Origin: an uncultured Chloroflexia bacterium
GTDB taxonomy: Bacteria > Chloroflexota > Limnocylindria > Limnocylindrales > CSP1-4
NCBI GenBank assembly: GCA_963715085.1
Contig: CAVQQU010000005.1
Coordinates: 163,881-227,880 of the forward strand
DNA: 64,000 bases
Direction of reading: 5' to 3'
Both the position numbers and the translations under genes were made by a program. The notes under the pieces are model-generated. The model worked only from the letters and a program-made list of their open reading frames with translations, was not told where the DNA came from and ran no database searches. This document shows, in pieces, positions 4,666 to 49,115 of the stretch. How positions within the stretch are numbered: the stretch's first letter is position 1; the number at the start of each line of letters is the position of its first letter.

Positions 4666-4753
4666 CCTCGCCCTCCTCCTGTCGCGGGATGTGCGACGGG
4701 GGCGTTCGCGTTGCGACGCCCCCGTCGGGTCAGCCGTGCCGTGCCGGCGCGCC

Positions 4754-9371: not shown

Positions 9372-12300
9372 GCCGTCTTACCGAGCTGTCGGTCGCCAAG
9401 CGGAGCGTCACGCTCCTCCTCGCGGTCGGGCTCTTCTTCGCCGGCATCTCGGCCTGGGGCAGCCTCCAGCAGGAGCTGCTGCCCGACATCGACTTCCCCG
9501 TGATCACCGTGATCGCCCCCTATCCGGGCGTCGGCGCGGCGGACGTCACGGAGCAGGTCACGAAGCCGATCGAACAGGCCATCTCGGGTGTGCCGCGCCT
9601 GGAGGCGCTGTCGTCGTCATCGGCCAACTCCATCGCGATCGTGGTCGCCCAGTTCGAGTTCGGCACCGACGTCAAGGAAGTGCGCTCGACGATCGAGCAG
9701 AACCTCCAGACGGCCGGCCTGCCCCCGAGCGTCGCCCCGGAGGTTGCCGCGCTCAACATCAACGCCTCGCCGGTGATCATCGCGTCTGTCGCCGGCGCCG
9801 GTGAAGACGGCCTCGACGCCGCCGCCGAGGTCGCCCGGAACGACGTTGTGCCCGCGCTGCAGGCGATCGATGGCGTGGCGACCGTCGACCTGACCGGCGG
9901 GCTCGAGACGCAGGCGGTCGTCACGCTCGACCCGGCGAAGCTCATCGAGACGGGCATCTCGGTCGCGCAGGTCACGGGCATCCTCACCGCCAACAACCTG
10001 ACCCTGCCGTCGGGCCAGATCTCGTCCGACGGCACGAACATTCCCGTGTCGACGATCGGGGTGATCAGCTCGATCGCCCAGATCGAGAACCTCGTCGTCG
10101 GCGTCAAGCTGCCGACGACTCCGCCCGCGATCCCTGGCACCGCCCCGACCCTGCCGGTCGTGCCGCCCGGAACCGACCCGGGCGCGGTGCCGACCGTGCC
10201 CGTCGAGCCGACGCCGATCTTCCTCAAGGACATCGCGACCGTCGAGGAAGCCGGCGTTGCGACGACCGGCTATGCCCGCACCGACGGCGTGCCCTCGCTG
10301 ACGCTGACCGTCACCAAGACATCGACGGCGAACACGGTCGAGGTCGCCGACGCGGTCACGGCCGAGCTCGAGGCGATCGGCGCCGCGAATGCCGAGACTG
10401 TCTCGATCACGGTGATCTCCGACCTCTCCACCTTCATCAAGGATTTCCCGCGACGGCCTGCTCAAGGAGGGCGGCCTGGGGGCGTTCTTCGCGATCCTGA
10501 CGATCTTCCTGTTCCTCTTCAGCATCCGGGCGACGCTGGTCGCCGCGGTCAGCATCCCGCTGTCCGTGTTGACGGCGCTCGTGGTCATGCAGATCACCGG
10601 CGTCACGATCAACGTCATGACTCTGGGCGGCCTCGCGGTCGCGGTCGGGCGCGTGGTCGACGACGCGATCGTCGTCCTGGAGAACATCTATCGCCACCGG
10701 GCACTGGGCGACGACCGCCTGACCGCCTCCCTGCGGGGTCCGCGCGAGGTGGCCGGGGCGATCACGTCGGCGACGCTCACGACCGTTGCCGTCTTCCTGC
10801 CCCTGGGCCTGGTCGGCGGCATCGTCAGTCAGCTCTTCCTGCCCTTCGCCTTGACCGTCACGTTCGCGCTACTGGCTTCGCTCGTCGTGGCCCTCACCGT
10901 GGTACCCGTGCTCGCTTACATGTTCATCGGGCAGGTCAAGCTCAACGTCGACGAGGATGGCGAGCCGAAGAACTCCCCCTGGATCCGTGCCTACACGCCG
11001 ACGATCCATTTCGTCCTGCGGGGCCGGGCCACGAAGTGGGCCGTCCTGGCGATCTCGACGATCCTCTTCATCGGGGCGACGGCCCTCGTCCCGCTCCTCC
11101 CCACGCAGTTCATCGATGCCGGAGGGGAGAACCTCCTGCAGGTGACAGTCGCCCCACCGGCCGGCACCAGCTCGGAGGCCGTGCTCGACCGGGCGATCGA
11201 GGCCGAGACCATCCTCCTCGCCGACCCCGAGGTCGAGGCGGTTCAGACCAGCGTCCCGGGCGAAGGGGACACGAGCTTCGGCACCGTCCAGGCCGCCCTC
11301 AGCGGCCGGCCGGCCAACAGCGCCACGCTCACGGTTCGACTCTCGGGTGAGGTGGACCTGACCACCTATGCGCAGAAGCTCTCGAACGACCTCGCCCCGG
11401 TCAAGACCGACGGCTACGACGTCGCCGTTGCCCAGACGGCCGGGTTCAGCTCGAATGGCCTGAACGTCGTGGTCAGCTCCGAGAATCCCGATGACGTCGC
11501 CGTGGCCACCGACGAGGTGATGGCGGCCCTCTCCGACAACGACGACCTCCTCAACCTCAAGTCCGACCTTTCGAAGGGGACGCCCGAAGTCCAGGTCGTT
11601 GTCGATCCCAACAAGGCGATCGGCGTCGGCCTCACCGCGGCCCAGGTCGCCGGCGAGGTCCGCGCGATCCTCGTCGGCACTCAGCCCACCACGATCCCGC
11701 CCGGCGAGGGCGGCGAGCCGATGCCGGTTGCCGTCCAGGTTGACCCGGAGCTCGTCACGAGCGTCGAGACGCTGCGGGCGCTGCCGGTCGGCACGACCGT
11801 CACCGTTCCTCTCGAGACGATCGCCGCGGTCGACGAGGTCGATGCCCAGGGCAGCATCACCCGCGTCGACCAATCCCCTGCGGCCACCGTCTCGGCCGAG
11901 ATCGCCAGCGACGACACCGGAGCGGTCTCCATGGAGGTTCAGCAGGAGATCGACGACCTCCAGGCGAGCGGGGCAATCCCGGCCGGCGTCACGATCACCC
12001 TGGCCGGCGTCACCGAGCAGATGAACGAGGCGTTCGGCAACCTCTTCATCTCGATGGGCGTCGCCATCCTGCTTGTCTACGTGATGATGGTCCTGACCTT
12101 CAACTCGCTCGTCACGCCCTTCATCATCCTGTTCAGCCTTCCGCTGGCCCTGATCGGCGCCTTCCCGGCGCTCTACCTGACCGGCAAGCCGATCGGCGTC
12201 AGCGCCCTCATCGGGTTCCTGATGCTCATCGGGATCGTGGTCACCAACGCCATCGTCCTGCTCGACCTCGTCGAGCGGCTGCGGAGCGAGGGCCACTCCA

Positions 12301-12629
12301 CGAAGGACGCCCTCATCGAGGGCGGCCGGACGCGAGTGCGCCCGATCCTGATGACGGCGATCGCGACGATCCTGGCCCTGATCCCGCTGGCCGCCGGCCT
12401 CTCCGAGGGCTCGATCATCGCGGCGGAGCTGGGCACCGTCGTCATCGGCGGGCTCTTCTCGTCGACCTTCCTGACTCTCCTCGTGATCCCCGTCCTGTAC
12501 TCCCTCGTCGACGGCGGCAAGTCGGGCCTGGCCCGGCGCTTCCGTCGTGCCGAGCCGATGGCGCCCGACGCCATGACGGCCGATCCGGGCGGCCCGACGC
12601 CGCCCGTCCAGCCGGCCCCGGCCGGCTGA
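9368..12629 (+). pseudogene. RND-superfamily efflux transporter permease (HAE/AcrB-like, about 1087 aa); one frameshift near 10440
   Basis: The N-terminus MSRLTELSVAKRSVTLLLAVGLFFAGI with a periplasmic loop. After ...DLSTFIKD the frame switches from 2 to 0 (DGLLKEGGLGAFFAILTIFLF...), then continues intact to 12629 with 12-TM RND topology. GTG 9368 is translationally coupled to marR. Confidence 0.8.
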
Positions 12630-12723
12630 CGATCGACCCGGCGCGTGCCTTCGGGCGATCCGGCACTTGGCCGGTTCGCCCGAGCCGTGCACGCTCCGGG
12701 TCACAAGCACGGAGGTGTTGACG

Positions 12724-13043
12724 TGGCCCTGTTCGAGGAACGTGACCTTGCCCGCTGGGGCCGCGCGGCGCGCGCCTGGCTCGTCCAGGACGACCAGCGC
12801 CGGACGATCGGCCTGATCGTCCTGTCGGTGACGATCTCGATCGCGGTGTCGCTGATCGCGACCGCCGTCGTCGGGCTCGTCTCGAAGCGGCGCGCCCCCG
12901 TCCGGGGCGATGTCCCGCCGCCTGACGTTGGCGAGCCGCTGGCCGAGGTCCAGCCCACGGCCGAGCAGGCCGTGGGCATCCCGGTCATGGCAGCCGACGG
13001 GGTCGCAGCCGCGGTCGAGGCGGCGGAGGCAGGCGGCGCCTGA
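12724..13043 (+). CDS. Hypothetical small single-pass membrane protein
   Basis: GGAGG, then 7 nt, then GTG. TM segment TIGLIVLSVTISIAVSLIATAVVGLV. No recognisable family. Confidence 0.35.
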
Positions 13044-13085
13044 CGATCAGCGCTTCAGGGGCGCTCGCGCGCCCTTCGAGTGGGA

Positions 13086-14426
13086 TCAGAGGAGCGGCGA
13101 GATTCGGTCCATGGCCGCGTCGAACACCTTGCCGCCCGCCGTCCGGTTGATCTCGGCGGGCGTCGAGACGGCCACCAGCGGGTCGAAGATCGCCCGCTCG
13201 AAGGCCTCGGCAACCTCGGCGCCCTCCAGGAACAGGTTCAGCTCCCAGTTGCGGTAGAGGCTCAGGGCGTCGAGGTTGCAGCCGCCCACGAGCACGCCGT
13301 CGTCGGCGACCATGACCTTGGCGTGGGCCATCGTGGGGTGGAAGAGGACCGTCGCTCCGGCCTCCTGGAGCCGCGGCACGTTGTGGCGGAACGCGGCCGC
13401 CGGCATCGGCGGCGTGGGCTTGCCCGGTACCACGATCCGCACCGCCACGCCCCGCTCCGCGGCCTGTACCAGGCGGTCCAGGATCGGCTTCTCCGAGATG
13501 TACGGGTTGACCAGGTCGACCCGCCGCGCGGCCGCGTCGATCACCTGCTCGTAGGCCTCGCTGATCGGCACGTGGCCCGTGCCGGGCACGTTCACGAGCA
13601 GGGTTGCCGGGACGACTCCGGGACCCGCCGTCGCGCCATCGTCCGGCGGGAACAGGCGGGCCATCGTCGCGTCGTCCGCGTCGAGCGGGCCGTCCTGGTG
13701 GCGCCAGCCTGCCACGAAGAGCGCCTGGAGCTGGCGGACGGCCAGGCCCTCGAAGCGGACCATCACGTCGGTGAACCGCTCGTCGTTGAAGTGGTCCTCG
13801 ATCCCCGTCCCGCCGAGGTAACCGACGCGGCCGTCGATCACCATGAACTTGCGGTGGTCGAAGTGGCCGATGTTCTCCCGCCGCCAGCCGATCCGTGCGC
13901 CCGGGCCCAGCGTTCCCTTGACATCGGGGAACATCCCGCGGTTCTGGACGACCTGCACACCGCCCTCCACGAGCTCGCCGAAGAGGGCCTTCGAGCCCGC
14001 CCGGACCTCGCTGCCGACGGCGTCGACCGAGAGGCGAACCGGGATGCCCGCGGCGACCTTCTCGAGGAGGACGTCCCGGAAGGCGGACCCGATGTCGCCC
14101 GGCTTGAAGCCGTAGATCAGCATGTTGATCGACAATTCGGCCGCCCGCAGGTCCTCGAGCATCCGCGGGAAGTACGTCGTGCCGTGGAGGAGTGGCTCCA
14201 CCGCCCGGGCCGTCGTGGGCGCGAAGGAGACGGCCACGTCGCGCTTCCGGACGATCGGCGCGGCCGCCATGCGGGCGGCGAACACCGCCGCCTCGTCCGC
14301 GGGCAACGAGACCGGACCGGACGGGAACGAGGGCACGCGCTTGGCGGCATTCCGGCGCGACGACGCCAGGACGCCGCCCGCCGCGGCAGCGGTGCTGAGG
14401 CCGAGGAGCAGGCGAACGCGACTCAT
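13086..14426 (-). CDS. Phospholipase D-family protein (two HKD motifs; cardiolipin-synthase-like), secreted or membrane-anchored
   Basis: HKD motifs HRKFMVIDG and HAKVMVADD. Signal or TM MSRVRLLLGLSTAAAAGGVLA. GGAGG RBS 7 nt before ATG 14426. Confidence 0.8.
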   Translation of the reverse strand: MSRVRLLLGLSTAAAAGGVLASSRRNAAKRVPSFPSGPVSLPADEAAVFAARMAAAPIVRKRDVAVSFAPTTARAVEPLLHGTTYFPRMLEDLRAAELSINMLIYGFKPGDIGSAFRDVLLEKVAAGIPVRLSVDAVGSEVRAGSKALFGELVEGGVQVVQNRGMFPDVKGTLGPGARIGWRRENIGHFDHRKFMVIDGRVGYLGGTGIEDHFNDERFTDVMVRFEGLAVRQLQALFVAGWRHQDGPLDADDATMARLFPPDDGATAGPGVVPATLLVNVPGTGHVPISEAYEQVIDAAARRVDLVNPYISEKPILDRLVQAAERGVAVRIVVPGKPTPPMPAAAFRHNVPRLQEAGATVLFHPTMAHAKVMVADDGVLVGGCNLDALSLYRNWELNLFLEGAEVAEAFERAIFDPLVAVSTPAEINRTAGGKVFDAAMDRISPLL

Positions 14427-34581: not shown

Positions 34582-35791
34582 CCCGGCGCTGGGCGGTGCC
34601 GACGGGCACGATCGAGGCAGGCGACGGCGCCGCGGGTGACCGTTCGTACTAGCGATCGCCTGGGGCAGCCCGCCCGTCCCGGCGGGCCTATGGAGGAGGT
34701 ATCCGGTGCAAGGCACGCCGGCGTCCGGCTGGTCGCGCCGGTAGGCGCCGCCGACCACGGAGGAATAGGGCTGATGCGCAACGAGGTCACCGCGACGCCG
34801 ACGGTTCGAGGTGGTGTTGTCGCAACGTGGCCTCGCCGTGCCGGCGAAGCGGTACCACCGATCGCCAGGTTGATTCGAGAGCACGATGCACGTTGTCGCG
34901 CGGGTCGCCGTTCAGCGCTGTGGCGAGCTTCGGCTCGGCCTTCCGGGCTCGCTGCTCGACGCCACCGTCGACGCCTGATCGGCAGGTCACTTCCCGAGGC
35001 CGTAGCCGACCGTGTCGACACGGCTCTCGTTCCGAGCAGGATCGCCGGAGCCAACTACGACCCGGCGACTGCAGGCTCGACGCCGGTCTCCGGCTACCCG
35101 GAGACTACTGCGCCGCCGGGACGCTCGGGACGATGTGCGCAACGTCGGACGAGATCGTACGACTACGGGTTCGACAACTTCGCGGGCTTCCCGAACACGC
35201 ACGATGCCGGGATCGTCGTGCTCGACCAGTCGATCCGCATGCCTCGAATACGGGCCCTGGCTGCTGTCGGCGCCATCGAGGCCTGCGCAACGGCGGGAGG
35301 CCGTCGAAGGTCGCCTCCTCGGCGAAGCGGATCCGGCCTGTCGCTGCCGCCGCTCGCCAACAGCGCGGTGGCAACGTCTCGTTCCGCTCGCGCCGTCGTC
35401 GAGACTCCGTGCAGGCCGACCGAACGTCGCAGTGGCGGCAGGACGATGACTTCGAACCTCCAGACCAGGGTCGGCGACGGTGCAGGGGCACCAGCTCCGG
35501 GGTCGGTGAAGCGCGAGTCGACCGCATCCGGGACATAGACGAGGAGCTGCCGACGTAGGCGGTCACCGTCGTCGTCGGGCTGACCCGTCGTGATGGCCGC
35601 CACGGGGGCCGCCTACGGGCGAGCGCGCGGCGAGTCCAGGACTGGATCGTGAGCTTCCGTCGCACGATGACCGTCACCTCCGTACACATGCTGGGAGCTC
35701 ATCGTAGTCGCCCGCGCTGCTCCGCGCCACCAGCGGTGCTCGCGGTCACCACTTCGCGGCCGCCCGCGCGCGCGGCTAGACTCGGGGCGCC

Positions 35792-37461
35792 ATGACCCAT
35801 CACTACACGGTCCTGTTCGGCGGCACCGTCCTGACGTTCGATGGTGCGCTGCCGACCGATGCCGCCAGCCGCGCGACGGGCGATCCGGGCGTGCCGGACG
35901 CGGCGGGTCGACGCGCCACCGCCATCTGCTACGCCCACGAGCGGATCCTCGCGGTCGGCAGCGACGAGGAGATGCTCGCGCTGGCGGGCCCGGATTCGCA
36001 CGTCATCGACCTGCGCGGCCGGGCCGTCCTGCCGGGATTCGTCGAGCCCCACGCCCACCCGTACTGGGAGGGGTTCGTCGCCGGGATGGCGCTGATCGCC
36101 GGGCGCGACCGGCGGGCGGCCATGCGGGCGATCCCCGGCGCGACCGAGCACCTTGACCCGGATGCGTGGCTGGTCGCGCGCTACGACCCGACGGGCTGGG
36201 ATCGCCCCGACGACCCGACCCGCGACGACCTGGACCGGGCGGTGCCGGATCGGCCCGTCCTGCTGGCCCACGTCTCGGGCCACGCCGTGACGGCGAACAG
36301 CCTCGCCCTGGCGCTCGCCGGCGTGGACGCGGCCACGGTGGATGTCGCCGGCCGATTCCTGGTGGAGCGCGACACCTCCGGCGAGCCGACCGGGATCGTG
36401 CGCGGGCCCGACGCCTGGGACCGGTTCGCCGCCGCCATGCCTCCGCCGACCGTCGAAGGGGGCCGCGGCGCCCTGGCCCGCGCGGCAGCCCGCCTGGCCG
36501 CCGACGGCGTCACGAGCGTCGCCGACGCCGACGTGGGCTCGACCGCCGGCGTCGAGGCTGAGATGGCGGCCTGGGGCGATGCCCTGGCCAGCGGGGCGAT
36601 GCCCCTCGCCGTGGCGCTGATGCCGGGGCTCGCGCGGATCGCGGCGAACCCCGACGATCCCGTCCCGCAGCCCAGCCGACCTCGCAGCGCTTCTCCCGGA
36701 CGGGGTTCGTGGCCAGGTCCGACTCACCCACGTGAAGCTCAAGGCCGACGGCGCGCTGACGACGCGGACGGCCTGGCTGCGCGACCCCTACGACGATGCC
36801 CCCCACGCGGGCGGGCCCGTCCACGACCCCGCCGCCCTCGCGGAGCGGATCCGTCGCGCGGCCACGGCCGGCTGGGCCAGCGCAACGCATGCGATCGGCG
36901 ACGCCGCCGTCGTGGCTGTCCTCGACGCCTGCGCCGCCGCGCCCGCGCGCTCGGGCATGGCCCACCGGATCGAGCACGCGATGCTCCTCGACGACGACCT
37001 CGTCAGCCCGCCTGGCCGCCTCGGGCATGACGGCCGTCGTGCAGCCGGAGTTCCTCGCGTGGGCCGGGCCGACCTACCGCGCCCGCCTCGGCGAGGAGCG
37101 CGCCGGGCGCCTCCTGCCATTCTCGCGCCTCCTGGCGGCCGGGATCCCCGTCGTCTTCTCGAGCGATCGGCCGGTCGTTCCGGGCGCCCCGCTGGCAGGC
37201 GTGCGCGCGGCGCTCCGACACGACGCCGCGCTCTCCGCCGCGGAGGCGTTGCACGCCTGGACGGCCGCGGGTGCCGCGACCCTCGGCGATGACGCTGCCG
37301 GGCGCCTGGAGGTCGGCGCGCGCACCGACCTCGTGGTCCTCTCGGGGGACCCGACCGCCGTCGCGCGCGACGCCTGGGCAAGTGGCGCCGACGGGATCCG
37401 GGTGGAGGCCACCGTGGCGGCCGGGCGCGTGGTCCACGGGGCGCTGGGCTGGGAGAGATGA
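35792..37461 (+). pseudogene. Amidohydrolase-family (amidohydrolase-3-like) metal-dependent hydrolase; frameshifted twice
   Basis: HAHPYWEG near the N-terminus. LKADGALTTRTAWL in the middle. C-terminal SSDRPVVPG. Three frame segments. Confidence 0.6.
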
Positions 37462-38354
37462 ACCCGGGCATCCTCGGGGTGATCGTCTTCGACTTCGACC
37501 CGTACGTGCATCTCGGGGACCTCGCCGTCCGCTGGGAGACGCTGGGAATCGCCGCCGCCGTGCTGATGGGGATCCTCGCTCTGGCGTTCCTCGCGGGCCG
37601 AACGCCCGCCCACGACGAGTGGATCGGCGAGGAGGAGCCACCGGAGGAGGAGCGCGAGGGCACCTGGCACCTGCGCCGCGACGACCTCCTGTTCATCCTC
37701 CTCGGCGCGGTTCCCGGTGCCGTCATCCTCGGGCGGCTGGGCTACGGCCTGCTCCACCTCGACTACTACGGCAACGAGTGGCGCGCGCTCCTCGACCCGG
37801 CCCAGGGGAGCATGGAGCTCGCGCTCGCGGTCGTCGGCGGCACGCTGACGGCCCTCTACGTCGCCGCGCTGCTGGACGCGCCGGTGGGCCGCTGGCTCCA
37901 CGTCGCGATCGCGCCGCTGCTCCTCGTCCTGGGGCTGGGCAAGGCCGCGCAGGCCCTCGGTGGCTCCGGCCAGGGCGAGGCCAGCGTCGCGGACTGGGCG
38001 ACGGCCTACGCCCCACCCGGGCCGTGGGGCAGCCCCGGCGCGGAGATCCCCGCCCACCCGGCCCAGCTCTACGAGGCGGCGATGACCGGTGCCGTCCTGC
38101 TCCTGGTCGTGGCCCTCGCACGCCTGACCCCGCTCCGCCGTGCGGACGGCCGCCTCTACGCCGTGGGCCTGGGCCTGTGGGCGCTCGGCCGCGGCCTCGT
38201 TGCCTCGACCTGGCGCGACCCGGTGGTCGTTGCCGGCCTGAACGCCGGCCAGCTCATCTGTCTCGGGGTTGCCGCGGCGATGTTCGGGGCGGCCGCGATC
38301 GCCACGATCGTCCGGGCGCGGCAGCCGGCGGGGCCGATCGTCCCCGCGCCCTGA
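37458..38354 (+). CDS. Lgt-family (prolipoprotein diacylglyceryl transferase-like) membrane protein; second paralogue
   Basis: The HPAQLYEA signature and polytopic topology. ATGA overlap with the upstream amidohydrolase. Confidence 0.6.
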   Translation: MNPGILGVIVFDFDPYVHLGDLAVRWETLGIAAAVLMGILALAFLAGRTPAHDEWIGEEEPPEEEREGTWHLRRDDLLFILLGAVPGAVILGRLGYGLLHLDYYGNEWRALLDPAQGSMELALAVVGGTLTALYVAALLDAPVGRWLHVAIAPLLLVLGLGKAAQALGGSGQGEASVADWATAYAPPGPWGSPGAEIPAHPAQLYEAAMTGAVLLLVVALARLTPLRRADGRLYAVGLGLWALGRGLVASTWRDPVVVAGLNAGQLICLGVAAAMFGAAAIATIVRARQPAGPIVPAP

Positions 38355-38399: not shown

Positions 38400-39817
38400 T
38401 CAGGACTGCCGGACGTAGTCGGCGCGGCTCCGGCGCAGGAAACGGCCGTGCCCCTCCGGGCCCTCCCAGACGTTGTCGCGGACGAGCACCGTGCCCCGGC
38501 TCATCACGAGGTCGGGCGCCCCCTGGATCTCCCAGCCCTCGAAGAGGGAGTAGTCGACGTCCATGTGGTGCGTCTTCGCGCTGATCGTTCGCTTCCGGTT
38601 CGGGTCGTAGACCAGGAGGTCGGCGTCCGAGCCGACCGCGATCGTTCCCTTCTGCGGGTACATGCCGAAGATCTTGGCGGGGTTGGTGGCCATGATCTCC
38701 ACCCAGCGCTCGCGGGTCAGGCGTCCCTCGACGACGCCGAAGTGGTGGAGCAGGTCGACCCGGTCCTCGACCGCCGGCAGGCCGTTCGGGATCTTCCGGA
38801 AGTCGCCCCGGCCGAGCTCCTTCTGGCCCTCGAAGTCGAACGGGCAGTGGTCCGTGCCGACGAGCTGGAGGTCGTCGCGCAGGAGGCCGCGCCAGAGATC
38901 CTCCCAGTGGTCCTTCGGCCGGAGCGGCGGGCTGCAGACGTACTTCGCGCCCTCGAACCCGTGGCCGAGGTCGTCGAGCGACAGGAGGAGGTACTGCGGG
39001 CACGTCTCCGCCCAGACCGGCGACCCGCGGTGGCGCGCGGCGGACACGGCCTCCAGCGCGTCGCGCGAGGAGAGGTGGACGAAGTACACCGGGGCGCCGG
39101 CCGCCTCCGCCAGGCGGATGCAGCGGTTGGTCGCCTCGCCCTCGAGGCCCGGGTAGCGGGCCAGGCCGTGGCCGATCGGGTCGGTCGTGCCGTTCGCCAC
39201 GAGATCGGCGGCGATCACGTCGATGACCGGGCCGTTCTCGGCGTGCATGAGGATGAGGCCGCCGTTCTTCTCCGTCTGCTTCATCGCCCGGAAGATGTGG
39301 TCGTCCGGGCTGAAGAAGACGCCGGGATAGGCGGTGAACAGCTTGAAGTCGGGTACGCCCTCCGCGACGAGCTGGTCCATCTCGGCCAGGCTCGCGTCGT
39401 TGACGTCGCTCATGATCATGTGGAAGGCGTAGTCGAGCACGGCGTGGCCCTCGGCCTTCGCCATCCAGGTGTCGAGGCCTTCGCGCAGGGCGTGCCCCTT
39501 GGGCTGGACGGCGAAGTCGACGATCGTCGTCGTCCCCCCGTGGGCCGCCGCCTTCGTCCCGCTCTCGAAGGTGTCCTTGGCGAACGTGCCGCCGAACGGC
39601 AGCTCGAAGTGCGTGTGCCCGTCGATCCCGCCGGGGACCACGTACTTGCCGCGTCGCGTCGATCGTCTCGTCGGCGACGAGCCCGGCGAGCGCCGACTCG
39701 ACGGCGCCCACGGCCCGCCGTGTCACCGCCTCGATCTTCCCGTCCGCGACCAGGACATCGGCCTCGAACGACCCGTCGGCCGTCGACGACGAGGCCGTTC
39801 TTGATCAGCGTGCGCAT
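38400..39817 (-). pseudogene. Dihydropyrimidinase / D-hydantoinase (cyclic amidohydrolase); frameshifted twice near the 5' end
   Basis: GGAGG RBS and MRTLIKNGLVVDG. GGIDGHTHFELPF. The carboxylated-lysine region FKLFTAY. The C-terminal 413 aa are intact. Confidence 0.75.
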
Positions 39818-39827
39818 CGAACCCTCC

Positions 39828-40836
39828 TCAGGCCTTGGCCGCGGGGACGTCGCGGAGGGCCGGGATGATCTCCCGGCCGTAGATCTCGAGCTGCTCTTCC
39901 TCGTTGCCGTTCATGAGGTAGAGGTTGAACTGGTCGACGCCGGCGTCGGCGAGGACCCGGAGCTTGGCAACGTGGGCCTCGGACGTCGCCGACGAGCCCG
40001 AAACGGTCGACGATGTCGTCGGTCACGAAGGCGGCGTTCGTGCTGCCGACCTCCGCGTGGTGCAGGTAGTCGTAGCCTTCGCGGCCGCGGATGTAGTGGG
40101 TGAGCGCCTCGGGCAGCTCGCCCTGGTACTTGTTGACGAGGTCGACGACGTGGTTGCCCACGAGGGCCGGGAACCAGCGGACGCGGTCGCGGCCGTCGGC
40201 GAGGTCGCCGACGTGGGCCGGGGCGGCCGCCATGATCCGGACGGCGTCGGGTCTCGCCCCGCCTCGCGGGCCGAGTCGTGGACCTGGCCGGCGAACCAGC
40301 GCACGAGGTCCGGATCGGCGATCTGGAGCATCGCCCCGTCGGCGATGCGCCCGGTCATCTTGAGAGCGACCGGCCCGTAGCCCGGCGATCCAGACGGGCA
40401 GGCGGTGTCCGGCCGCCCAGGGCAGCTGGAGGGTCGCACCCTCGTACTCGATCGGCCGTCCCTCGGCGAGGGCCCGGATGACGTGGACCGCCTCCTCGAG
40501 CGTCGCCATCGTCGTGGGCGCCTTGCCGAGGACGCGGATGGCCGAATCGCCCCGGCCGATCCCGAGGTCGAAGCGGCCGCCCGAGAGCTCCTGGAGGACG
40601 GCGAGGCTCGACGCCGTGACCGAGGGCTCGCGCGTGGCCGGGTTGGTGACGCAGGTCCCGAGGCGCATGGTCGTGGTGGCCTGCGCCATCAGCGTCAGGA
40701 GCGGATACGGGTCCCGCCAGAGCACGTGACTGTCGAAGAGCCAGCCGTAGGCGAAGCCGGCCGCCTCGGCCTGCCGGGCGAGGGCGATCGTTCGCTCGAC
40801 TGAGTGCTCGGGCTTGATCGTGAAGCCGAACTCCAT
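39828..40836 (-). pseudogene. LLM-class (luciferase-like) flavin/F420-dependent oxidoreductase; frameshifted twice
   Basis: MEFGFTIKPEH...RLGTCVTNPATREP, IADPDLVRWFAGQVHDS, C-terminus LYLMNGNEEEQLEIYGREIIPAL. It lies between the dihydropyrimidinase and the CN-hydrolase. Confidence 0.65.
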
Positions 40837-40863
40837 CGGGCCCCTCCTTCCCGGTGCGCAGCC

Positions 40864-41715
40864 CTACGGGCGAGTCAGGTCACCGTACATGTCCGGCCGC
40901 CGGTCGCGGTAGAACTGCCAGGTCTCGCGTACCTTCTTGACCATGTCGAGGTCCAGGTCGCGAACGAGCAGCTCCTCGTCGTGCGGGCTGCCGACGCCGC
41001 CGATGAACTGGCCGCGCGGGTCGCAGAAGTAGCTCTGGCCGTAGAAGTCGTCGGGACCGATCTCGGCCTCGACGCCCACCCGGTTGATCGTTCCGACGAA
41101 GTAGCCGTTCGCCAGCGCGTGGCTGACCTGCTCCACCCGCCAGAGGTACTCGGAGAGGCCGCGGCTGGTGGCCGACGGGATCAGCACGAGCTCGGCGCCG
41201 TTGAGGCCGAGCGCACGGGCACCCTCGGGGAAGTGGCGGTCGTAGCAGATGTAGACCCCGATCTTGCCGACGGCGGTCTCGAAGACCGGGTAGCCCAGGT
41301 TGCCGGGCCGGAAGTAGAACTTCTCCCAGAAGCCCTCGACGTGGGGGATGTGCGTCTTGCGGTACTTGCCGAGGTACGACCCGTCGCTGTCGATGACCGC
41401 GGCGGTGTTGTAGTAGAGGCCGTTGACGCGCTCGTCCTCCTCGTACATCGGGACGACGAGGACCATGCCCGTCTGCTTCGCGAGGTCCTGCATGCGCTTC
41501 GTGGTCGGGCCGTCCGGGATGCGCTCCGTGTACGAGTAGTACTTCTTGTCCTGCACCTGGCAGAAGTAGGGACCGTAGAACAGCTCCTGGAAGAGCATGA
41601 ACTGGGCACCCTGCTTGGCCGCCTCGTGGGCGTAGCCCTCGTGCTTCTGGATCATCGATTCCTTGTCGCCGGTCCAGGTCGCCTGCAGGAGCGCGCCGCG
41701 AACGATCCGGGTCAT
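40864..41715 (-). CDS. Nitrilase-superfamily C-N hydrolase (beta-ureidopropionase / N-carbamoyl-amino-acid amidohydrolase-like)
   Basis: Intact 283 aa. The catalytic triad context E...K...C (VGKIGVYICYDRHFPE). GAGG RBS. Confidence 0.8.
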   Translation of the reverse strand: MTRIVRGALLQATWTGDKESMIQKHEGYAHEAAKQGAQFMLFQELFYGPYFCQVQDKKYYSYTERIPDGPTTKRMQDLAKQTGMVLVVPMYEEDERVNGLYYNTAAVIDSDGSYLGKYRKTHIPHVEGFWEKFYFRPGNLGYPVFETAVGKIGVYICYDRHFPEGARALGLNGAELVLIPSATSRGLSEYLWRVEQVSHALANGYFVGTINRVGVEAEIGPDDFYGQSYFCDPRGQFIGGVGSPHDEELLVRDLDLDMVKKVRETWQFYRDRRPDMYGDLTRP

Positions 41716-41998
41716 GCCGTACCTCACTGTGTCGTCACGGTGGAATGCGGCCGAGGATACACCGGCGGCATGGCCACGCCGCCCCCGACAGGGCCGGTGG
41801 GCGCGAGCCGCTGGCGCATCCGTCGCGTGCGCATCTGTCGTGCCGGGGCTTGCCCGGCCGCGTAGGATGCCCCGCAACTTGGCCGCGATGGTCGGCGAGA
41901 GGTGAGAGGAGGACGACAAGCGGAGGGCCGCACCGAAGCGCGGCGCGTCTTCACCGATCCAGGCATCAACCGCTGAGGGACAACTGCGGAGGGAGTCG

Positions 41999-43641
41999 AT
42001 GACTGCGACAACGATGGAGGAGATCGTCCACCCCGACGGGCGACACGAGCTGACCCCGGACACGGATGCGTCGCTCGACGGATCCCCGCTCCACAACCAG
42101 GACCTTGCACCCGTTGCGCTCCCCAGGCGCACCTGGACCACCTACAACTACCTGGCCCTGTGGATCGGGATGTCCATCAACATCCCGTCGTGGGCGCTGG
42201 CGGCCGGCCTGATCACGATCGGGATGGACTGGGTCCAGGCGATCATCACGATCGGCCTCGGCAATCTGATCGTGCTGATCCCGATGCTGCTGATCAGCCA
42301 CGCGGGCACCAAGTACGGCATCCCGTACCCGGTCGTCTCGCGCGGCCGCGTTCGGCGTCTGGGGCGCCAACCTGCCGGCCCTCCTGCGCGCCGGCGTGGC
42401 CTGCGGGTGGTTCGGCATCCAGACCTGGATCGGCGGCCCTCGCCGTCTTCGCCATCGGCACCGTCGTTCTTCACCGGCTCCTCGGCGAGGACAACTTCTG
42501 GACGACTCGGCCGGCGACGATCTCGATCGGCGATCGGCCTGACGCGGTCCGCTACAGCCTTGGGCGGTGTGGCTCAGCTTCCTCGATCTTCTGGGCCGTC
42601 AACATTTGATCATTCTCTTCGGGGCATGAACACGGTGAAGCGGTTCGAGAACTGGGCCGCGCCGTTCATGGTCGTCGTGTTCCTCGGCCTGATGACTGGA
42701 TGGTCATCCGCGCCGGCGGCCTGGGCCCGGTCGTGGAACAGGCCGGGACCCTCGGCTGGGGTCCGGACTTCTGGGCGGTCTTCCCGATCTCGCTCATGGG
42801 CATGATCGCGTTCTGGTCGACGCTGTCGCTGAACATGCCGGACTTCACCCGGTTCGGCCGAAGTCAGCGTGAGCAGATGGTCGGCCAGGCCGCGGGCCTG
42901 CCTACCACCATGACCCTCTTCCCGCTGCTCGGCGTCCTTACCGTGTCGGCGACGGTCGTCGTCTACGGCGAGGCGATCTGGGACCCGACACGCTGGTCTC
43001 CCGGCTCGACAACCGCTCGTCGTCGATCCTCATGCGGATTCACGCTCGCGATCGCCACCCTGTCGACGAACGTGGCCGCCAACGTCGTGAGCCCGTCCTA
43101 CGACTTCTCCAACGCCTGGCCGAGCAAGATCAGCTTCCGCACCGGCGGCATCATCACGGGCATCATCGGCATCCTGATCATGCCCTGGAACCTGCTGGCC
43201 ACGCCGAGCTCTACATCTTCACCTGGCTCGGCACCTACGGCGGCCTGACCGGCGCCATTGCCGGCGTGCTGATCGCCGACTACTGGTTGATTCGGCGGAC
43301 GAAGCTCAAGCTGGCCGACCTCTACCGGCCGAACGGCATCTACCGCTACGCCGGCGGTTGGAACTGGCGGGCGCTCGTCGCCCTCATCGTCGGGGCCATC
43401 GTGGGCATCGGCGGCGCCTACACGCCGGCCGGCGCCAGCGGTCCGTTCCCGGCAGACGGGATCATCCCGTTCCTCAAGCCGTTCTACGACTACAGCTGGA
43501 TCGCCTCGCTGATCGTCGGGTTCGTGCTCTACTGGGTTCTCGCCACGTTCTTTATCCCGCAGAAGGGCCAGGAGATCGAGGACATGGCTGCCTGCGGCCG
43601 GCGGCTGCCGAGCCGCCAGATCCGCGCCGTCATGGGTCGCA
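41999..43641 (+). pseudogene. NCS1-family nucleobase:cation symporter (uracil/allantoin/hydantoin-type permease); frameshifted three or more times
   Basis: NCS1 N-terminus (YNYLALWIGMSINIPSWALAAGL) and fragments in all three plus frames. The 3' end is approximate and upstream of the 43670 terminator. Confidence 0.7.
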
Positions 43642-43669
43642 CTGACCCCGCGCCGATGCAGCACGAAGC

Positions 43670-43702
43670 GAAGGGGCCCCTCCGCCGAGCGGAGGGGCCC
43701 CT
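43670..43702. terminator. Bidirectional intrinsic terminator: perfect 15-bp stem AAGGGGCCCCTCCGC-cga-GCGGAGGGGCCCCTT followed by TTCTTGTGT
   Basis: Read directly. It sits between convergent NCS1 and mmsA. Confidence 0.6.
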
Positions 43703-43765
43703 TCTTGTGTCCGACATCGAGCCGATTCGGCGGTGGGCCGCCGTGCGCGCTCGGGCGGGATGGGC

Positions 43766-45309
43766 TCAGCTGTTGCCGGGGAAGACCAGGGAGAGGCCGG
43801 GACGGCGGCCGGGCTCCGGCCAGCGCTCGGTGACCATCTTCTGCTGGGTGAAGAAGCGGACCCCGTCCTCGCCGCGCATGGCCAGGTCGCCGATGGCCGA
43901 CTCCTTGGCCCCCCCGAAGGAGAGGTAGCCGGCCGGGACCGGGATCGGGACGTTGACCCCGATCATGGGCACCTCGACCTCGAGCTTGAAGCGCCGGGCG
44001 GCACCGCCGTCGGTCGTGAAGATGGCCGTCCCGTTGGCGTACTTGTGGGCGTTGATGAGGCCGATCGCCTCGTCGTACGTCGCCGCGTGGACGATGCCCA
44101 GCACCGGCCCGAAGATCTCCTCCTGGTAGATGTCCATGTCCGGGGTCACGTGGTCGAAGAGGGTGACCCCGAGGAAGAAGCCGTCGGGGTTCGTCCGGAT
44201 GGACGAAGGGCCGCCCGTCGACCACGAGCTCGGCCCCCTCGGCCTCGCCCCGCTCGATCCACTTCACGACCGAGGCCCGGTGCTCCGCGGTGTAGAGCGG
44301 GCCCATGTCCACGCCCGGCTCCATGCCCGGGCCGACCTGGAGCTTGGCGATCCGCTCCTCCATGAGCGGGCGGAGCCTGTCCGCCGTGTCGCCCACCGTG
44401 ATGACGAGGGTCTGGGCCATGCAGCGCTCGCCGGCGGAGCCGTAGCCCGCGGCGACCGCGGCGTCGGCGGTCAGCTCCATGTCGGCGTCGGGCAGGACGA
44501 TCATCGCGTTCTTGGCCGAGGTGTACGCCCCGACCCGCTTGCCCCGCTTCGTGCCCTCCTCGAAGACGTACTTCCCGACCGCGGTCGAGCCCACGAACTG
44601 GATGGCCTTGATGCCCGGGTGCTCGACGATCGCGCTGACCGCGTCGCGGCCGCCGTACACGACGTTGAACGTGCCGTCGGGGCCGCCGGCCGCCTGCCAC
44701 AGCTCGGCCTGGAGCTGGGTGGCCCCGGGGGTGTGGGAGGAGGGCTTGAGGACGACCGTGTTGCCGCACATGAGGGCGATCGGGACGATCCACATGGGGA
44801 CCATGACCGGGAAGTTGAAGGGCGTGATCGCCGCGACCACCCCGAGCGGGCCGCGCAGGGTGAAGGCGTCCACGTTGGTGGCCACGTTGGGGGTCATCAT
44901 CCCCGCCAGGTGGACCGGCAGGCCGGCCGCGTACTCGACCGTCTCGAGGCCGCGCATCACCTCGGCGAAGGCGTCGGGGTAGGTCTTGCCGTGGTCCCTC
45001 GTGATGAGGGCGGCCAGCTCCTCGCGGTGCTGCCAGAGCTGCTCGCGCCAGGCGAAGAAGACCTCGCTGCGGGCGATGAGGGGGGTGTCCCGCCAGGCCG
45101 GGAAGGCGGCGGCCGCCGCGGCCACGGCCGCGTCCACCTCGGGTGCCCCGCCGCGCGGGACGCGGGCGATGACCGCTCCCGTGGCCGGGTTGTACACCGG
45201 GCCGGTCTGCTCGGGCAGGACCTCGACCGGTGCGCCGGCGATCCAGTGGGACAGGATGGGCAGGCTCACGGGGGCCGCGCTGGCCTCCGGACGCACTTCG
45301 GTCGTCATG
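43766..45309 (-). pseudogene. mmsA: Methylmalonate-semialdehyde dehydrogenase (CoA-acylating); one frameshift near 44190
   Basis: AAGGAGG RBS. The ILSHWIAG hallmark. The catalytic Cys context GERCMA. The C-terminal 127 aa are in a second frame. Confidence 0.8.
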
Positions 45310-45704
45310 GTGCTGGTGCCTCCTTGGGGCTGCGGCAGGACGCGTGGCCACGATGGCCAGCCGGCATGGATCGGGCAGACCCGTCTCGCGAGCTGTTCCA
45401 CCGATCGTCGTCATTATGGCGCCCACCGCGCAAGGTCCGGACGGCGACTTCCGAGCCTGCCGGACGGACCGTCTGGGGCAGCGGCCCGGCCGGGCGGCTG
45501 GGGTGCCGTGGGAACCAGGACGATCGGCCTGCACCCGGTCGTCACCGTCCGGGCGCCGAGTCTCGCCCGCGAGCGCAGGGCCGCGCCGGCCCGGCGTCTC
45601 GTGTCCTTTGGGCCTCTCGCCGCGTGTCCCTCCCGTGCTGTAATGACCGCGACGCCCCAGCGTGACCACGCGGACGGCCCGCGCCGCCCGGTACGGAGGA
45701 CCTC

Positions 45705-47041
45705 ATGAGCACCAGCACCGCGCCCGGAACCATGGCCAGCGAGGAGATCGTTCGCCTCTCCCGGGCGCACACGTTCTTCTCGTGGTCCGCCCAGGGCGCC
45801 ATCGACCCCATCGCGATCGACCACGCCGAGGGGATCTACCTCTACACGCCCGAAGGCCGCCGGATCATCGACTTCAACAGCCAGCTGATGTCGGTGAACG
45901 TCGGCCACGGCGACCGCCGGATCATCGACGCGATCACGGCCCAGGCGGCGAAGCTCCAGTACGTCCAGCCGGCCTTCGCCACCGAGATCCGGGCCCGCCT
46001 CGGCGCGAAGATGGCCGAGATCATGCCGGGCGACCTCGACAAGGTCTTCTTCACCCTCGGCGGGGCGGAGGCGGTCGAGAACGCGATCAAGCTCGCCCGC
46101 CACTTCACGGGCCGGACCAAGGTGCTCGCCCGCTACCGGACCTACCACGGCGCCACGCTCGGGGCCATGACGCTCACCGGCGACCCGCGCCGCTGGGCCA
46201 ACGAGCCGGCGATCTACGGGGTCGTCCGCTACCCGGACACGCATCGCTGGGGCGAGAAGGAGCCCCGGCCGGCGGCCGAGGCGCTGGCCGGCCTCGAGGA
46301 CGTGATCCGCTACGAGGGCCCGCACACGATCGCGGCGATCTTCCTCGAGACGATCGTGGGGACGAACGGCATCCTCATCCCGCCCGACGGCTACCTGGCC
46401 GGCGTGCGCGAGCTGTGCGACCGCTACGGGATCCTCATGGTCGCCGACGAGGTGATGGCCGGCTTCGGGCGGACCGGCAAGTGGTTCGCGGTCGACCACT
46501 GGGACGTCGTGCCCGACCTCATGACGATGGCCAAGGGCCTGACGTCGAGCTACCTGCCCGCTCGGCGCGGTGGCGATGCGCCACCACATCGCCGAGGCGT
46601 TCGACACGAAGATGTTCTACGGCGGCCTCACCTACAGCAGCCACCCGGTGAGCCTGGCGGCCGCCCTGGCCACGATCGGGGTCTACGAGGAAGACGGGCT
46701 CATCGAGCGGTCCGCCGCCATGGGGGCGGTGCTGCCGCAGCCACCACGAGGCGCTCGCGGCGAAGCACCCGAGCGTGGGCGCGACCCGCAGCCTGGGCCT
46801 CTTCGGGATCATCGACCTGGTCCGCAGCCGGGACCCGTGGACTCCGATGACGCCGTTCAACGGCACGTCGGACGAGATGAAGGCGGTCGCGAAGCACCTC
46901 CGCGACAACGGCCTCTACACGATGATCGCCAACAACGGGATCCACACGAACCCGCCGCTGTGCATCACGGAGGAGCAGCTCGGCGAGGCCTTCGCGATCA
47001 TCGACGCGGCCCTCGACAAGGCGGACGAGGCGCTCGCGTAG
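45705..47041 (+). pseudogene. Class III omega-aminotransferase (beta-alanine/beta-aminoisobutyrate:pyruvate type); frameshifted two to three times in the 3' third
   Basis: MVADEVMAGFGRTGKWF. The PLP-lysine MAKGLTSSY. The C-terminus GLYTMIANNGIHTNPPLCITEEQL is in another frame. Confidence 0.75.
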
Positions 47042-47098
47042 GTCCTGACGCACGCGCACGCCGCGCGCGGAGCGGTCGCTGCGGCGCGCGCGCGTCGG

Positions 47099-47756
47099 TC
47101 AGCTGATCTGACCCGTCCCGAACTGGCGGTCGCCGGCGTCGCCCAGGCCGGGCAGGATGTAGCCCTCGCTCGTTGAGCTGGCGGTCGAGGGCGGCGCAGT
47201 GGATCGTGACGTCCGGGTGCGCGGCACTCACCGCGGCGACGCCCTCCGGGGCGGCGATCAGGTTGATGAGCTTGATCCGGGTGGCGCCCCAGCGCTTGAG
47301 CACGTCGATTGCCGCCGTGGCCGAGCCGCCGGTCGCGAGCATCGGGTCGAGGATGAGGCAGAGGTCGACCGTCGCGGAGTCGGGGAGCTTGTTGTAGTAC
47401 TCGACCGGGCGCAGGGTGCGCTCGTCGCGGAAGAGGCCCAGGTGCCAGACCTGCGCGGTGGGCATCAGCTCGAGCATCGCGTCGACCATGCCGAGGCCGG
47501 CGCGCAGGATCGGGACGAGCCCGATCCGGTCGGCCAGCTCGTGGGCGTCGATCTCCTCCAGGGGCGTGCGGACGCGGAGCGGGCGCAGCCGGGCGTCGGC
47601 GAGGGCCTCGTAGCCGAGGAGCCAGGAGAGCTCCCGGACGACCTCGCGGAACTTCTTGGGCTCGGTCTCCTCGTCGCGCAGAATCGCGAGCTTGTGGAGG
47701 ACGGCCGGGTGGCGCGGACAGGTGGAGATTGGGCGGGCGGGGTTGCTGTCGGACAC
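47099..47756 (-). pseudogene. upp: Uracil phosphoribosyltransferase; one frameshift near the 3' end (length is not a multiple of 3)
   Basis: [17 protein letters not shown] motif. The C-terminus [16 protein letters not shown] is in a second frame. Confidence 0.7.
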
Positions 47757-47981
47757 GGGCGCGCACCTCGGGCGTTCAGCGGGGATCGGCGCGGCCGGCG
47801 GCCCGGGACGGGGTTCCGACCGGACCGATCCTAGCATCCGCCCGGGGCACGCCGTGGGGCCGTGCCCCGCAGGCACCGCCGCTCCCGGGTCGCCCCCGGC
47901 CAGCCACGGCGCCAAGCCCTGGACACCCGGCGGCGCAACGGCCGCCGCGCCCGGCATCCGTCGCGCTATCCTCGGCCCACC

Positions 47982-49115
47982 ATGCCATCCGCCCGGCCCC
48001 CGAGGGGCATCCGTTCGCCAGCGCCCCCGCCGCGCGGCCCGCGCCGGGCCGCGCCCGTCCTGGCCCTCCAGGTGCGGGGCGAGATCGTGGAGAGCGTCCA
48101 TCGCGGCCACGTCGTGCGGGTGGACGAGGCGGGCCGCGTCACCCACGTCGCCGGCGACGCCGAGGTCGAGGTGACGCTGCGCTCCGGCGTCAAGCCGTTC
48201 GCTCTGCTCGCCCTTGCGGAAGCCGGTGGGTTCCGAGACTACGGTCTCACCTCCGCGGAGATCGCCCTGATGGCGAGCTCGCACTCGGGCGAGGACCTCC
48301 ACGTGCGGACGCTGCAGGCCGTCTTCCGGCGGTCGGGACTCACCCAGGCGCTCCTGGCCTGCGGAACGGAGGGCGCCCCGCTCGATTCCCTCACCTCGGC
48401 GCGGCTGGCCCGGGACGGCGAGCGCGCCGGACCCATCCGCCACATGTGCTCGGGCTACCACGCCGCCATGCTCCTCCTGGCCCGTCTCGGCGACTGGAGC
48501 CTCGAGGACTACTGGAACGCCGACCATCCCGTCCAGGTCGCCGTGCGGGCGGCCGTTGCCCGGGCCTTCGCGACCACGCCCGAGCGGCTCCTCACGGCGC
48601 CCGACAACTGCGGCGTGGAGACGTACGCCTTCCCGCTGGCAGCGGTGGCGCGGGCCTACGCGTTCCTGGCCGACCCGGATGCCGTGCCGGCGGGCGACCC
48701 GCGGCAGGGCCTGGCGCCGCCGCTCCGAGCGATCCGCGACGCGATGGCCGCCCACCCGGAGATGGTGGGCGGGACCCGCGAACGGCTCGACACCTCGCTC
48801 GCAAAGGCGCTCCCGGGACGCCTCGTGGTCAAGGGCGCGGCCGAGGGGCTTCGGGCGATCGCCGTCCTCCCGGACCCGGCCCGGCGCACGGGCGCGTCGG
48901 CGATCGCGGTGAAGGTCGAGGACGGCGGGGGCTTCGACCGGGCGACCTGGGCGGTGAGCGTGGAGGCGTTGCGCCTCGCCGGGGTCCTCGAGGGACAGGC
49001 CCTTCGGGTCGTTGGCCGCTACCATCGACCCGTCGAGCTGGATCCGCACGGGCGCATCGCGGCCGAGACGATCCCGGGCTTCGACTTCGCCCCGGTGGGC
49101 GAGCTGATCGGCTGA
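47982..49115 (+). CDS. Asparaginase-family protein (PF06089-like L-asparaginase II / isoaspartyl-type)
   Basis: Intact [18 protein letters not shown]...[13 protein letters not shown]. The start is uncertain (ATG 47982). Confidence 0.55.

Follow-up and report, generated by a model that had tools for sequence, protein, structure and literature searches.

The stretch analysed here (the window) is 64 kb of DNA with a G+C content of ~72% from an uncultured Chloroflexia bacterium (contig CAVQQU010000005.1), and the genes between positions 38400 and 47756 form a reductive pyrimidine (Pyd) catabolic island. Coding frames were chosen by third-position GC and by family scans against NCBIfam and Pfam, gene spans were taken from tblastn with intact orthologues, and gene identities were assigned from NCBIfam and Pfam. 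The core of the island consists of three minus-strand genes. The first, which is intact, encodes a CN-hydrolase of Pfam family PF00795 and a probable N-carbamoyl-beta-alanine amidohydrolase (PydC; 40864-41715). It is followed after 27 nt by an oxidoreductase of the luciferase-like monooxygenase (LLM) type and of family TIGR03842 (39828-40836), a gene interrupted by three single-base indels whose product we propose to be an F420H2-dependent uracil/thymine reductase. The last gene encodes a dihydropyrimidinase (PydB, TIGR02033; 38400-39817, with tblastn matches in three frames), and its ATG lies ~10 nt beyond the LLM stop codon, after a GGAGG sequence. These three genes are one tight operon, and family scans agree with the first-pass annotation of this DNA that the LLM protein is its only redox enzyme.

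A divergent intergenic region (41716-41998), delimited by reading the sequence, separates this operon from a plus-strand gene for an NCS1 nucleobase:cation symporter, which extends from 41999 to ~43631 (3' end approximate) and was recognised by TIGR00800 and PF02133 on pieces of its open reading frame (ORF) and by tblastn in three frames. Beyond it lie a minus-strand gene for a CoA-acylating methylmalonate/malonate-semialdehyde dehydrogenase (MMSDH, TIGR01722; 43766-45308), a plus-strand gene for a class-III (omega) aminotransferase, presumed to be a beta-alanine/beta-aminoisobutyrate transaminase (PF00202 and NF004718; 45705-47041), and the minus-strand upp gene for uracil phosphoribosyltransferase (NF001097 and PF14681; 47105-47756). 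The gene content, order, and strands given by the first-pass annotation, including the divergence of the triad from NCS1 and the proximity of the aminotransferase, the dehydrogenase, and upp, were borne out by these family matches. Neither a sigma-70-like promoter nor a convincing terminator nor an Rfam element was detected when the cluster, including the divergent region, was scanned.

The enzymes surrounding the LLM protein are those of pyrimidine degradation. The 413-aa ORF of the dihydropyrimidinase scores 513 bits on TIGR02033 (cutoff 393) and its full-length orthologue in the related locus L014 562 bits, and its nearest solved structures are the Bacillus D-hydantoinase/dihydropyrimidinase entries 1k1d and 3sfw. 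The CN-hydrolase matches PF00795 with 212 bits and reaches no NCBIfam equivalog cutoff; its best PDB relatives are an N-carbamoylputrescine amidase (5h8i, 207 bits) and the animal beta-ureidopropionases 2vhh (181 bits) and 6ftq (172 bits), whereas D-carbamoylases give only 82-92 bits. MMSDH scores 419 bits on TIGR01722 over its first 350 aa, and its intact orthologue in L010 scores 613 against a cutoff of 448; the intact orthologues of the symporter (L003) and the aminotransferase (L006) reach 414 bits (TIGR00800 cutoff 353) and 541 bits (NF004718 cutoff 472), and upp itself reaches 211 bits on NF001097 (cutoff 114). A hydantoin racemase was not found in the cluster by the NCBIfam and Pfam scans. 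Because the amidase is far from the D-carbamoylases, and because the dihydropyrimidinase and the intact orthologues of the aminotransferase, MMSDH, and permease pass their family cutoffs, the cluster is, judging from these profile matches, of the Pyd type rather than the hydantoin type. The hydantoin alternative that the first-pass annotation had entertained is not favoured, as the amidase is closest to the beta-ureidopropionase/N-carbamoylputrescine amidase group.

Family, fold, and cofactor class of the LLM protein

When the three indels are removed, the LLM protein has 335 aa and scores 444 bits against TIGR03842 (F420_CPS_4043), well above the cutoff of 295.45, and it is a member of that family; the raw, frame-broken ORF scores 294.8 bits. 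NCBIfam lists TIGR03842 as a 'hypothetical equivalog' with no characterised function, so that profile classification did not lead to a characterised LLM subfamily of unrelated function, the outcome which the first-pass annotation had named as speaking against its proposal. The protein falls below the cutoffs of the Mer models (155.9 against 276 bits on NF002619 and 143.4 against 348.7 bits on TIGR03555), and the RutA model is absent among its 22 NCBIfam matches. Identities as an alkanesulfonate monooxygenase, a glucose-6-phosphate enzyme (FGD), Mer, or RutA were rejected on this classification. TIGR03842 is a very large and highly conserved family, since a homology search returned at least 8000 homologues at E < 1e-10, the top 120 of which are 86-97% identical.

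The LLM protein has the luciferase-like TIM-barrel fold (PF00296, 151 bits), and its closest sequences in the PDB are all F420 enzymes. Mer comes first among them and is the closest characterised homologue (PDB 8qpm, 1z69, and 1f07; ~30% identity, E ~1e-35), sharing the VTNP and GxGxGD segments with the LLM protein. Mer is the F420-dependent methylenetetrahydromethanopterin reductase, in which hydride passes straight from F420H2 to a carbon borne by an N-heterocycle. Unlike Mer, the LLM protein is bacterial, carries motifs of its own, stays below the Mer cutoffs, and is encoded in the context of pyrimidine catabolism. An AlphaFold2 model of orthologue P0001, which is 97% identical to the LLM protein of the window, was obtained with an alignment of diverse homologues (pLDDT 94, pTM 0.92); a prediction from a shallow alignment (pLDDT 58.6) was discarded. 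The top 30 PDB fold matches of the model are all F420 enzymes, namely Mer (TM-score ~0.8), Adf, FGD1, FGD2, and the Thermomicrobium FGD, and FMN-dependent luciferases and monooxygenases rank later. Taken from sequence relatives and a modelled fold, the evidence on the cofactor points to F420 over FMNH2. In Paracoccus and Leisingera, members of TIGR03842 are the final genes of cofGHDCE-npdG operons, and the co-encoded Fno is in keeping with an F420H2-consuming reductase.

Three motifs, FDS[HS][VI]LW, RWFPALVGNHV[AV]D, and a GYDYxxH insert, are found in the core members of the family from all three phyla in which it was traced (alignment A3); Mer and the borderline members P0140, P0144, and P0122 lack them. 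They occupy residues ~34-40, 220-232, and 254-260 of the LLM protein in the window, and this distribution makes them candidate substrate-binding elements. Cys62, within GTCVTNP, was considered as a catalytic acid comparable to Cys671 of dihydropyrimidine dehydrogenase and was rejected, as Met or Leu is found at this position in Streptomyces and Leisingera.

Linkage to pyrimidine catabolism across lineages

The best 80 genomic matches to the LLM gene, all from metagenome-assembled genomes (MAGs) labelled Chloroflexia or Candidatus Limnocylindrales, were taken as the Chloroflexota set. From these matches the window belongs to the MAG of a high-GC, Limnocylindria-like member of the Chloroflexota and not to an actinomycete. 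In 74 of these 80 loci fewer than 250 nt separate the LLM gene from a CN-hydrolase gene upstream of it, and of the 76 loci that extend far enough, 67 have a dihydropyrimidinase gene downstream of LLM in the same orientation, which indicates that the arrangement is not due to chance. The aminotransferase gene is present in 62 of the 80 loci, and those without NCS1 often have an NMT1-type ABC transporter instead. In some of the loci (L027, 11008-11820; L031, 12150-13549; L077, 3421-4772), ORFs are inserted between LLM and dihydropyrimidinase; judged by eye only, they encode a ~270-aa MOSC-like protein and a ~190-aa PlsY-like membrane protein, and they are uninformative.

Homologues at 41-50% identity retain the linkage to the pathway with altered gene orders. 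In Streptomyces the dihydropyrimidinase gene is immediately upstream of the LLM gene, with a CN-hydrolase and an aminotransferase 5 kb upstream. One metagenomic lineage (P0121) has a CN-hydrolase, a dihydropyrimidinase, an aldehyde dehydrogenase, the LLM, and an ABC transporter; a second (P0140) combines an ABC transporter, an Amidohydro_1 amidohydrolase that is not recognisably a dihydropyrimidinase, the LLM, and a CN-hydrolase; and a third (P0127) has the LLM with a CN-hydrolase. The co-occurrence with dihydropyrimidinase that was to be expected from the first-pass annotation was therefore found: TIGR03842 accompanies dihydropyrimidinase and an amidase of the N-carbamoyl-beta-alanine type in three phyla and in varied orders, even where the amidase is a non-homologous M20 enzyme. 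Other TIGR03842-like genes occur in two further neighbourhoods (L092, the context of P0128, and the P0144 contig), which contain either a 446-aa LLM with an isochorismatase and an amidase, resembling Rut, or a CDA-fold deaminase with an M20 peptidase and a second LLM. These contexts hint at additional pyrimidine-related variants.

The most telling comparison comes from the Rhodobacterales. On Leisingera plasmids, LLM is the last gene of a cofG-cofH-cofD-cofC-cofE-npdG (Fno) operon. Divergent from this operon are pntA-pntB and the genes for an omega-aminotransferase, a hydrolase of the M20 carbamoylase family, HydA, and NCS1; a semialdehyde dehydrogenase is not present in this island. All ten of the LLM-bearing Leisingera plasmids carry hydA, and the linkage of hydA with an M20 hydrolase in this genus indicates that LLM is linked to the pathway and not to one particular amidase. 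In Roseinatronobacter sp. S2, which also belongs to the Rhodobacterales, the orthologous island (hydA 72%, M20 hydrolase 69%, and RutR/YcdC-type TetR regulator 53% identical) has preT-preA beside the regulator and contains no F420 genes, and the F420/LLM module of Leisingera occupies the place of preT-preA. Homologues of PreA were found on 85 plasmid records, mostly beside hydA, and none of these is a Leisingera record; the LLM loci of Streptomyces, Leisingera, Paracoccus, and the metagenomic lineages likewise gave no match to PreA or PreT, and five Chloroflexota loci are the only LLM loci in which one was found. We read the Rhodobacterales pattern as a non-orthologous displacement in which a module running from NADPH through Fno and F420H2 to LLM would have replaced PreTA. 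In Leisingera aquaemixtae (plasmid NZ_CP081061.1, locus L178), pntA-pntB (10652-13669) lead the Pyd operon and face the F420/Fno/LLM operon, and this placement suggests a dedicated supply line from NADH to NADPH to F420H2.

The family is not confined to such islands. In Paracoccus alcaliphilus (plasmid locus L081, 9001-12794), the TIGR03842 gene is the last of a cof-Fno operon, with a NitT/TauT-type ABC transporter encoded beyond it, and Pyd genes were not found within 9 kb, which means that not every family member is visibly tied to pyrimidine catabolism. The possibility that this transporter is the orthologue of the Roseinatronobacter Pyd transporter was unsupported, their binding proteins being 26% identical. 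A DUF1330 gene adjoins the F420/LLM or Pyd genes in both P. alcaliphilus (L081, 3083-3373) and Leisingera (L178, 19437-19730).

The PreA-like gene and its remnant

Intact homologues of PreA or PreT were not found by tblastn in the 64-kb window. A 375-aa PreA-like gene lies between MMSDH and the aminotransferase in five of the 80 Chloroflexota loci (L002, L006, L007, L014, and L061); the intact copy in L006 is located at 4124-5251 on the minus strand. Its product aligns with the FMN/pyrimidine domain of pig dihydropyrimidine dehydrogenase (residues 531-820) and keeps the uracil-binding Asn residues and the catalytic Cys of the pig enzyme, but it has neither a C-terminal Fe-S domain nor a PreT partner, and its score is just below the PreA cutoff. 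At the syntenic position in the window, blastn and tblastn detected a 60-nt remnant of this PreA/PydA-FMN-domain-like gene on the plus strand (45492-45551), which is 86.7% identical to nt 108-167 of the L006 gene (E = 5.6e-15) and gives a tblastn match of 25 aa at 68% identity. This is the only significant blastn match of the L006 gene in the window, from which the remainder of the ~1.1-kb gene is absent (alignment A2), and the syntenic remnant implies that the PreA-like gene was deleted in this lineage. The statement of the first-pass annotation that no PydA/PreAT-type enzyme is present thus holds for intact homologues in the window, and has to be amended for the remnant and for the intact gene in the five sister loci.

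When metagenomes were scanned with the PreA-like protein as the query, 80 loci were returned, most of them without Pyd genes nearby, and in two (L136 and L145) the CN-hydrolase directly adjoins the dihydropyrimidinase with no LLM and with the PreA-like gene alongside. Related Chloroflexota therefore occur in three states, with LLM only, with both genes, and with the PreA-like gene only. The reciprocal loss of the two genes suggests that their functions overlap, and their long coexistence suggests that the enzymes are not wholly interchangeable, with a possible difference in substrate or electron donor. We read the PreA-like FMN-only reductase of some sister genomes as a second enzyme with a different electron donor. 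Stand-alone homologues of the PreA/PydA FMN domain are common in Chloroflexota metagenomes, and some PreA-like genes come after an apparent nucleoside-type ABC transporter, as judged by ORF sizes and arrangement.

The proposed pathway and its alternatives

In the pathway that we propose, uracil or thymine would enter through the NCS1 permease and have its C5=C6 bond reduced by the TIGR03842 LLM, with F420H2 as the hydride donor and dihydrouracil or dihydrothymine as the product. The dihydropyrimidinase would then open the ring, the CN-hydrolase would free beta-alanine or beta-aminoisobutyrate together with NH3 and CO2, the class-III aminotransferase would form malonate or methylmalonate semialdehyde, and the CoA-acylating dehydrogenase would yield acetyl- or propionyl-CoA. 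The LLM protein is assigned the missing reduction because every other step of the pathway has a dedicated gene and because it is the sole redox enzyme in the operon; it would be a non-homologous, F420-dependent functional analogue of the PydA/PreAT dihydropyrimidine dehydrogenase. On comparative evidence we consider it probable that TIGR03842 proteins are F420H2-dependent uracil/thymine reductases. The gene identities, the family membership, the F420-class fold, and the linkage kept across phyla are observed, whereas which substrate is reduced, which way the reaction runs, and which cofactor serves in this organism are inferred. The first-pass annotation had proposed such a reductase working with either F420H2 or FMNH2; the reductase part gains comparative support and the F420 class fits its relatives, while FMNH2 is not indicated by the sequence comparisons.

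The NAD(P)H-dependent PydA/PreT-PreA enzymes and the ferredoxin-dependent PydAc of Clostridium chromiireducens (PMC7332683) catalyse the reaction that is predicted for the LLM protein, the reduction of C5=C6 before dihydropyrimidinase. The LLM protein would take their position in the pathway, and it shares their type of neighbourhood, with hydA, a carbamoyl-amidase, a transporter, and a RutR-type regulator. There is no homology between the two, however, as the LLM protein is a single-domain TIM barrel of 335 aa with F420H2 as its predicted donor, and has no FMN/dihydroorotate-dehydrogenase-like domain, Fe-S clusters, or FAD/NADPH module. RutA is luciferase-like, as is the LLM protein, and acts first on uracil or thymine in a RutR-controlled catabolic operon. 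It performs an FMN-dependent oxidative ring cleavage with FMNH2 supplied by RutF and works with RutB to RutE. Homologues of RutB, RutC, RutD, and RutF are not in the cluster, where the NCBIfam and Pfam scans gave no isochorismatase or flavin-reductase family match, and the cluster differs from Rut in that its downstream enzymes are those of the reductive pathway.

In the literature library that was searched in full text, no paper was found that assigns this function to TIGR03842. A broader view, towards which we incline a little less firmly, is that TIGR03842 proteins are F420H2-dependent dihydropyrimidine dehydrogenases and represent a third, non-homologous solution to ring reduction in abundant soil Chloroflexota, Streptomyces, and some Rhodobacterales, and that the plasmid-borne cofGHDCE and Fno genes of the Rhodobacterales mainly feed this step. 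If this is true, F420 would have a physiological role in these bacteria in the recovery of nitrogen and carbon from pyrimidines; a 2021 review noted that no F420-dependent enzyme had been studied in Chloroflexi or Proteobacteria and that the reason why they make F420 was open (PMC8498797). F420H2 would then be the third electron-donor variant of the Pyd pathway after NAD(P)H and ferredoxin, the 'hypothetical equivalog' annotation would be corrected in thousands of genomes, and a single-subunit, Fe-S-free uracil C5=C6 reductase would be of interest for biocatalysis. The question can be addressed directly with a simple assay and in culturable hosts (Leisingera and Streptomyces).

Several points weigh against the assignment of ring reduction to the LLM protein. 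Genes for F420 biosynthesis and Fno were not found in the 64-kb window or in the Chloroflexota flanks, and the LLM gene of the window itself has three frameshifts. Family members in P. alcaliphilus, P0128, and P0122 have no Pyd genes nearby. The five loci with both LLM and an intact PreA-like gene hold a second enzyme with the uracil-binding and catalytic residues of dihydropyrimidine dehydrogenase, and this coexistence argues against a simple redundancy of the two; as PreA-like genes are often away from Pyd genes, one could also lie elsewhere in this genome, of which 64 kb were seen. Finally, the literature search turned up no TIGR03842 member that had been studied by biochemistry or genetics.

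One alternative, which we regard as unlikely, is that the LLM protein performs another redox step of the pathway, for example the F420H2-dependent reduction of (methyl)malonate semialdehyde to the 3-hydroxy acid in analogy to PydE, RutE, and YdfG, with ring reduction by a PreA-like or PydA enzyme encoded elsewhere. The presence of F420 LLMs acting on alcohols or carbonyls (Adf, FGD, and hydroxymycolate dehydrogenase) among its structural neighbours would agree with such a role, as would the PreA-like reductase in sister clusters, often unlinked to Pyd genes, the position of LLM directly after an aldehyde dehydrogenase in L087, and the Leisingera island, which is without a semialdehyde dehydrogenase. 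However, the window has a semialdehyde dehydrogenase that would make a semialdehyde reductase redundant here, and the LLM gene is wedged between two ring-processing hydrolases rather than placed beside the aminotransferase. Moreover, the Rhodobacterales module stands in the place of preT-preA in an orthologous island, and the closest homologue is Mer, which delivers hydride to a heterocycle-bound carbon, and not an alcohol dehydrogenase.

It is similarly doubtful that the triad acts on another unsaturated cyclic ureide, such as a 5-substituted uracil, a hydantoin-type compound, or a purine-derived compound such as yanthine, and that the LLM protein reduces that ring. Dihydropyrimidinases are also D-hydantoinases, distant family members (41% identity) have divergent amidohydrolases, an FAA hydrolase, and CoA transferases as neighbours, and an Amidohydro_3 gene lies two genes from the dihydropyrimidinase of the window. 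In addition, a bioinformatic prediction of 2025 placed a putative F420 'luciferase-family' enzyme in the position of the PydA-like yanthine reductase in reductive urate clusters of Chloroflexota (PMC12507026), which is the published idea nearest to ours. That case resembles the present one in that a PF00296 enzyme of Chloroflexota would take the place of a ring-dearomatising reductase of the PydA type beside ring-opening amidohydrolases, and differs in that the pathway is one of purines and the prediction was seeded on SsnA. Against a ureide of this kind, the aminotransferase and MMSDH suit beta-alanine and beta-aminoisobutyrate rather than alpha-amino acids or diaminopropionate, and the amidase resembles beta-ureidopropionase more than it does D-carbamoylase. 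The upp gene, the NCS1 permease, and the RutR-type regulator of the Leisingera island point to uracil and thymine, and the nearby 554-aa amidohydrolase, having no NCBIfam match at E <= 1e-60, is not SsnA.

For a reduction of the uracil ring itself there is a chemical precedent in the mureidomycins, where SSGG-03002, a putative F420/FMN enzyme, is genetically required for the reduction of uracil C5=C6 (PMC10714638). This protein (SSGG-03002/NpsU of the mureidomycin and napsamycin clusters) has 443 aa and a uridyl-peptide antibiotic substrate, and in vitro activity was not obtained (PMC10714638). Unlike the LLM protein, its sole recognisable similarity, weak and partial, is to PPOX-class F420-dependent oxidoreductases (PMC10714638), so that NpsU/SSGG-03002 was rejected as a precedent for the LLM family and retained for its chemistry only.

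The state of the reading frames also bears on the assignment. At least 11 single-base frameshifts were located from tblastn frames in the 9.4-kb cluster: two in the dihydropyrimidinase (both within the first ~50 codons), three in LLM, at least two in NCS1, one in MMSDH (near 44200), two in the aminotransferase, and one in upp (close to the 3' end). The LLM indels were defined against four orthologues as +C, -1, and +T (alignment A1), and their removal restores the length of the homologues without an internal stop codon. The closest related contig (L086, from a long-read MAG) has 91% DNA identity, the same synteny, and broken genes of its own; between it and the repaired LLM gene there are 43 synonymous and 10 non-synonymous codon differences, a ratio as between intact orthologues. 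Frame-phase switches are raised over 24-56 kb of the window, beyond the cluster. On account of the codon-substitution pattern, the wide spread of frame switches, and the broken genes in L086, the frameshifts look like long-read assembly errors rather than decay. That the island is a decaying, non-functional set of pseudogenes in which LLM is idle, as the number of frameshifts in so short a cluster and the deletion of the PreA-like gene down to a remnant could suggest, is very improbable and was rejected, given that every frameshift is a single-base indel, that the repaired LLM gene has no stop codon and has the substitution pattern seen between intact orthologues, that switch density is raised well outside the cluster, and that a related long-read contig is affected in the same way.

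An Lgt gene (37458-38354) is directly downstream of the dihydropyrimidinase, and two genes away on the same side is the gene for the 554-aa Amidohydro_3/Amidohydro_1 protein (35776-37461), which is itself split over three frames between 35790 and 37410, outside the Pyd cluster. This protein was considered as SsnA/UacY of the urate pathway and rejected on the lack of a family match mentioned above. At the other end of the island, upp is flanked by an asparaginase-II-like gene (47862-49115).

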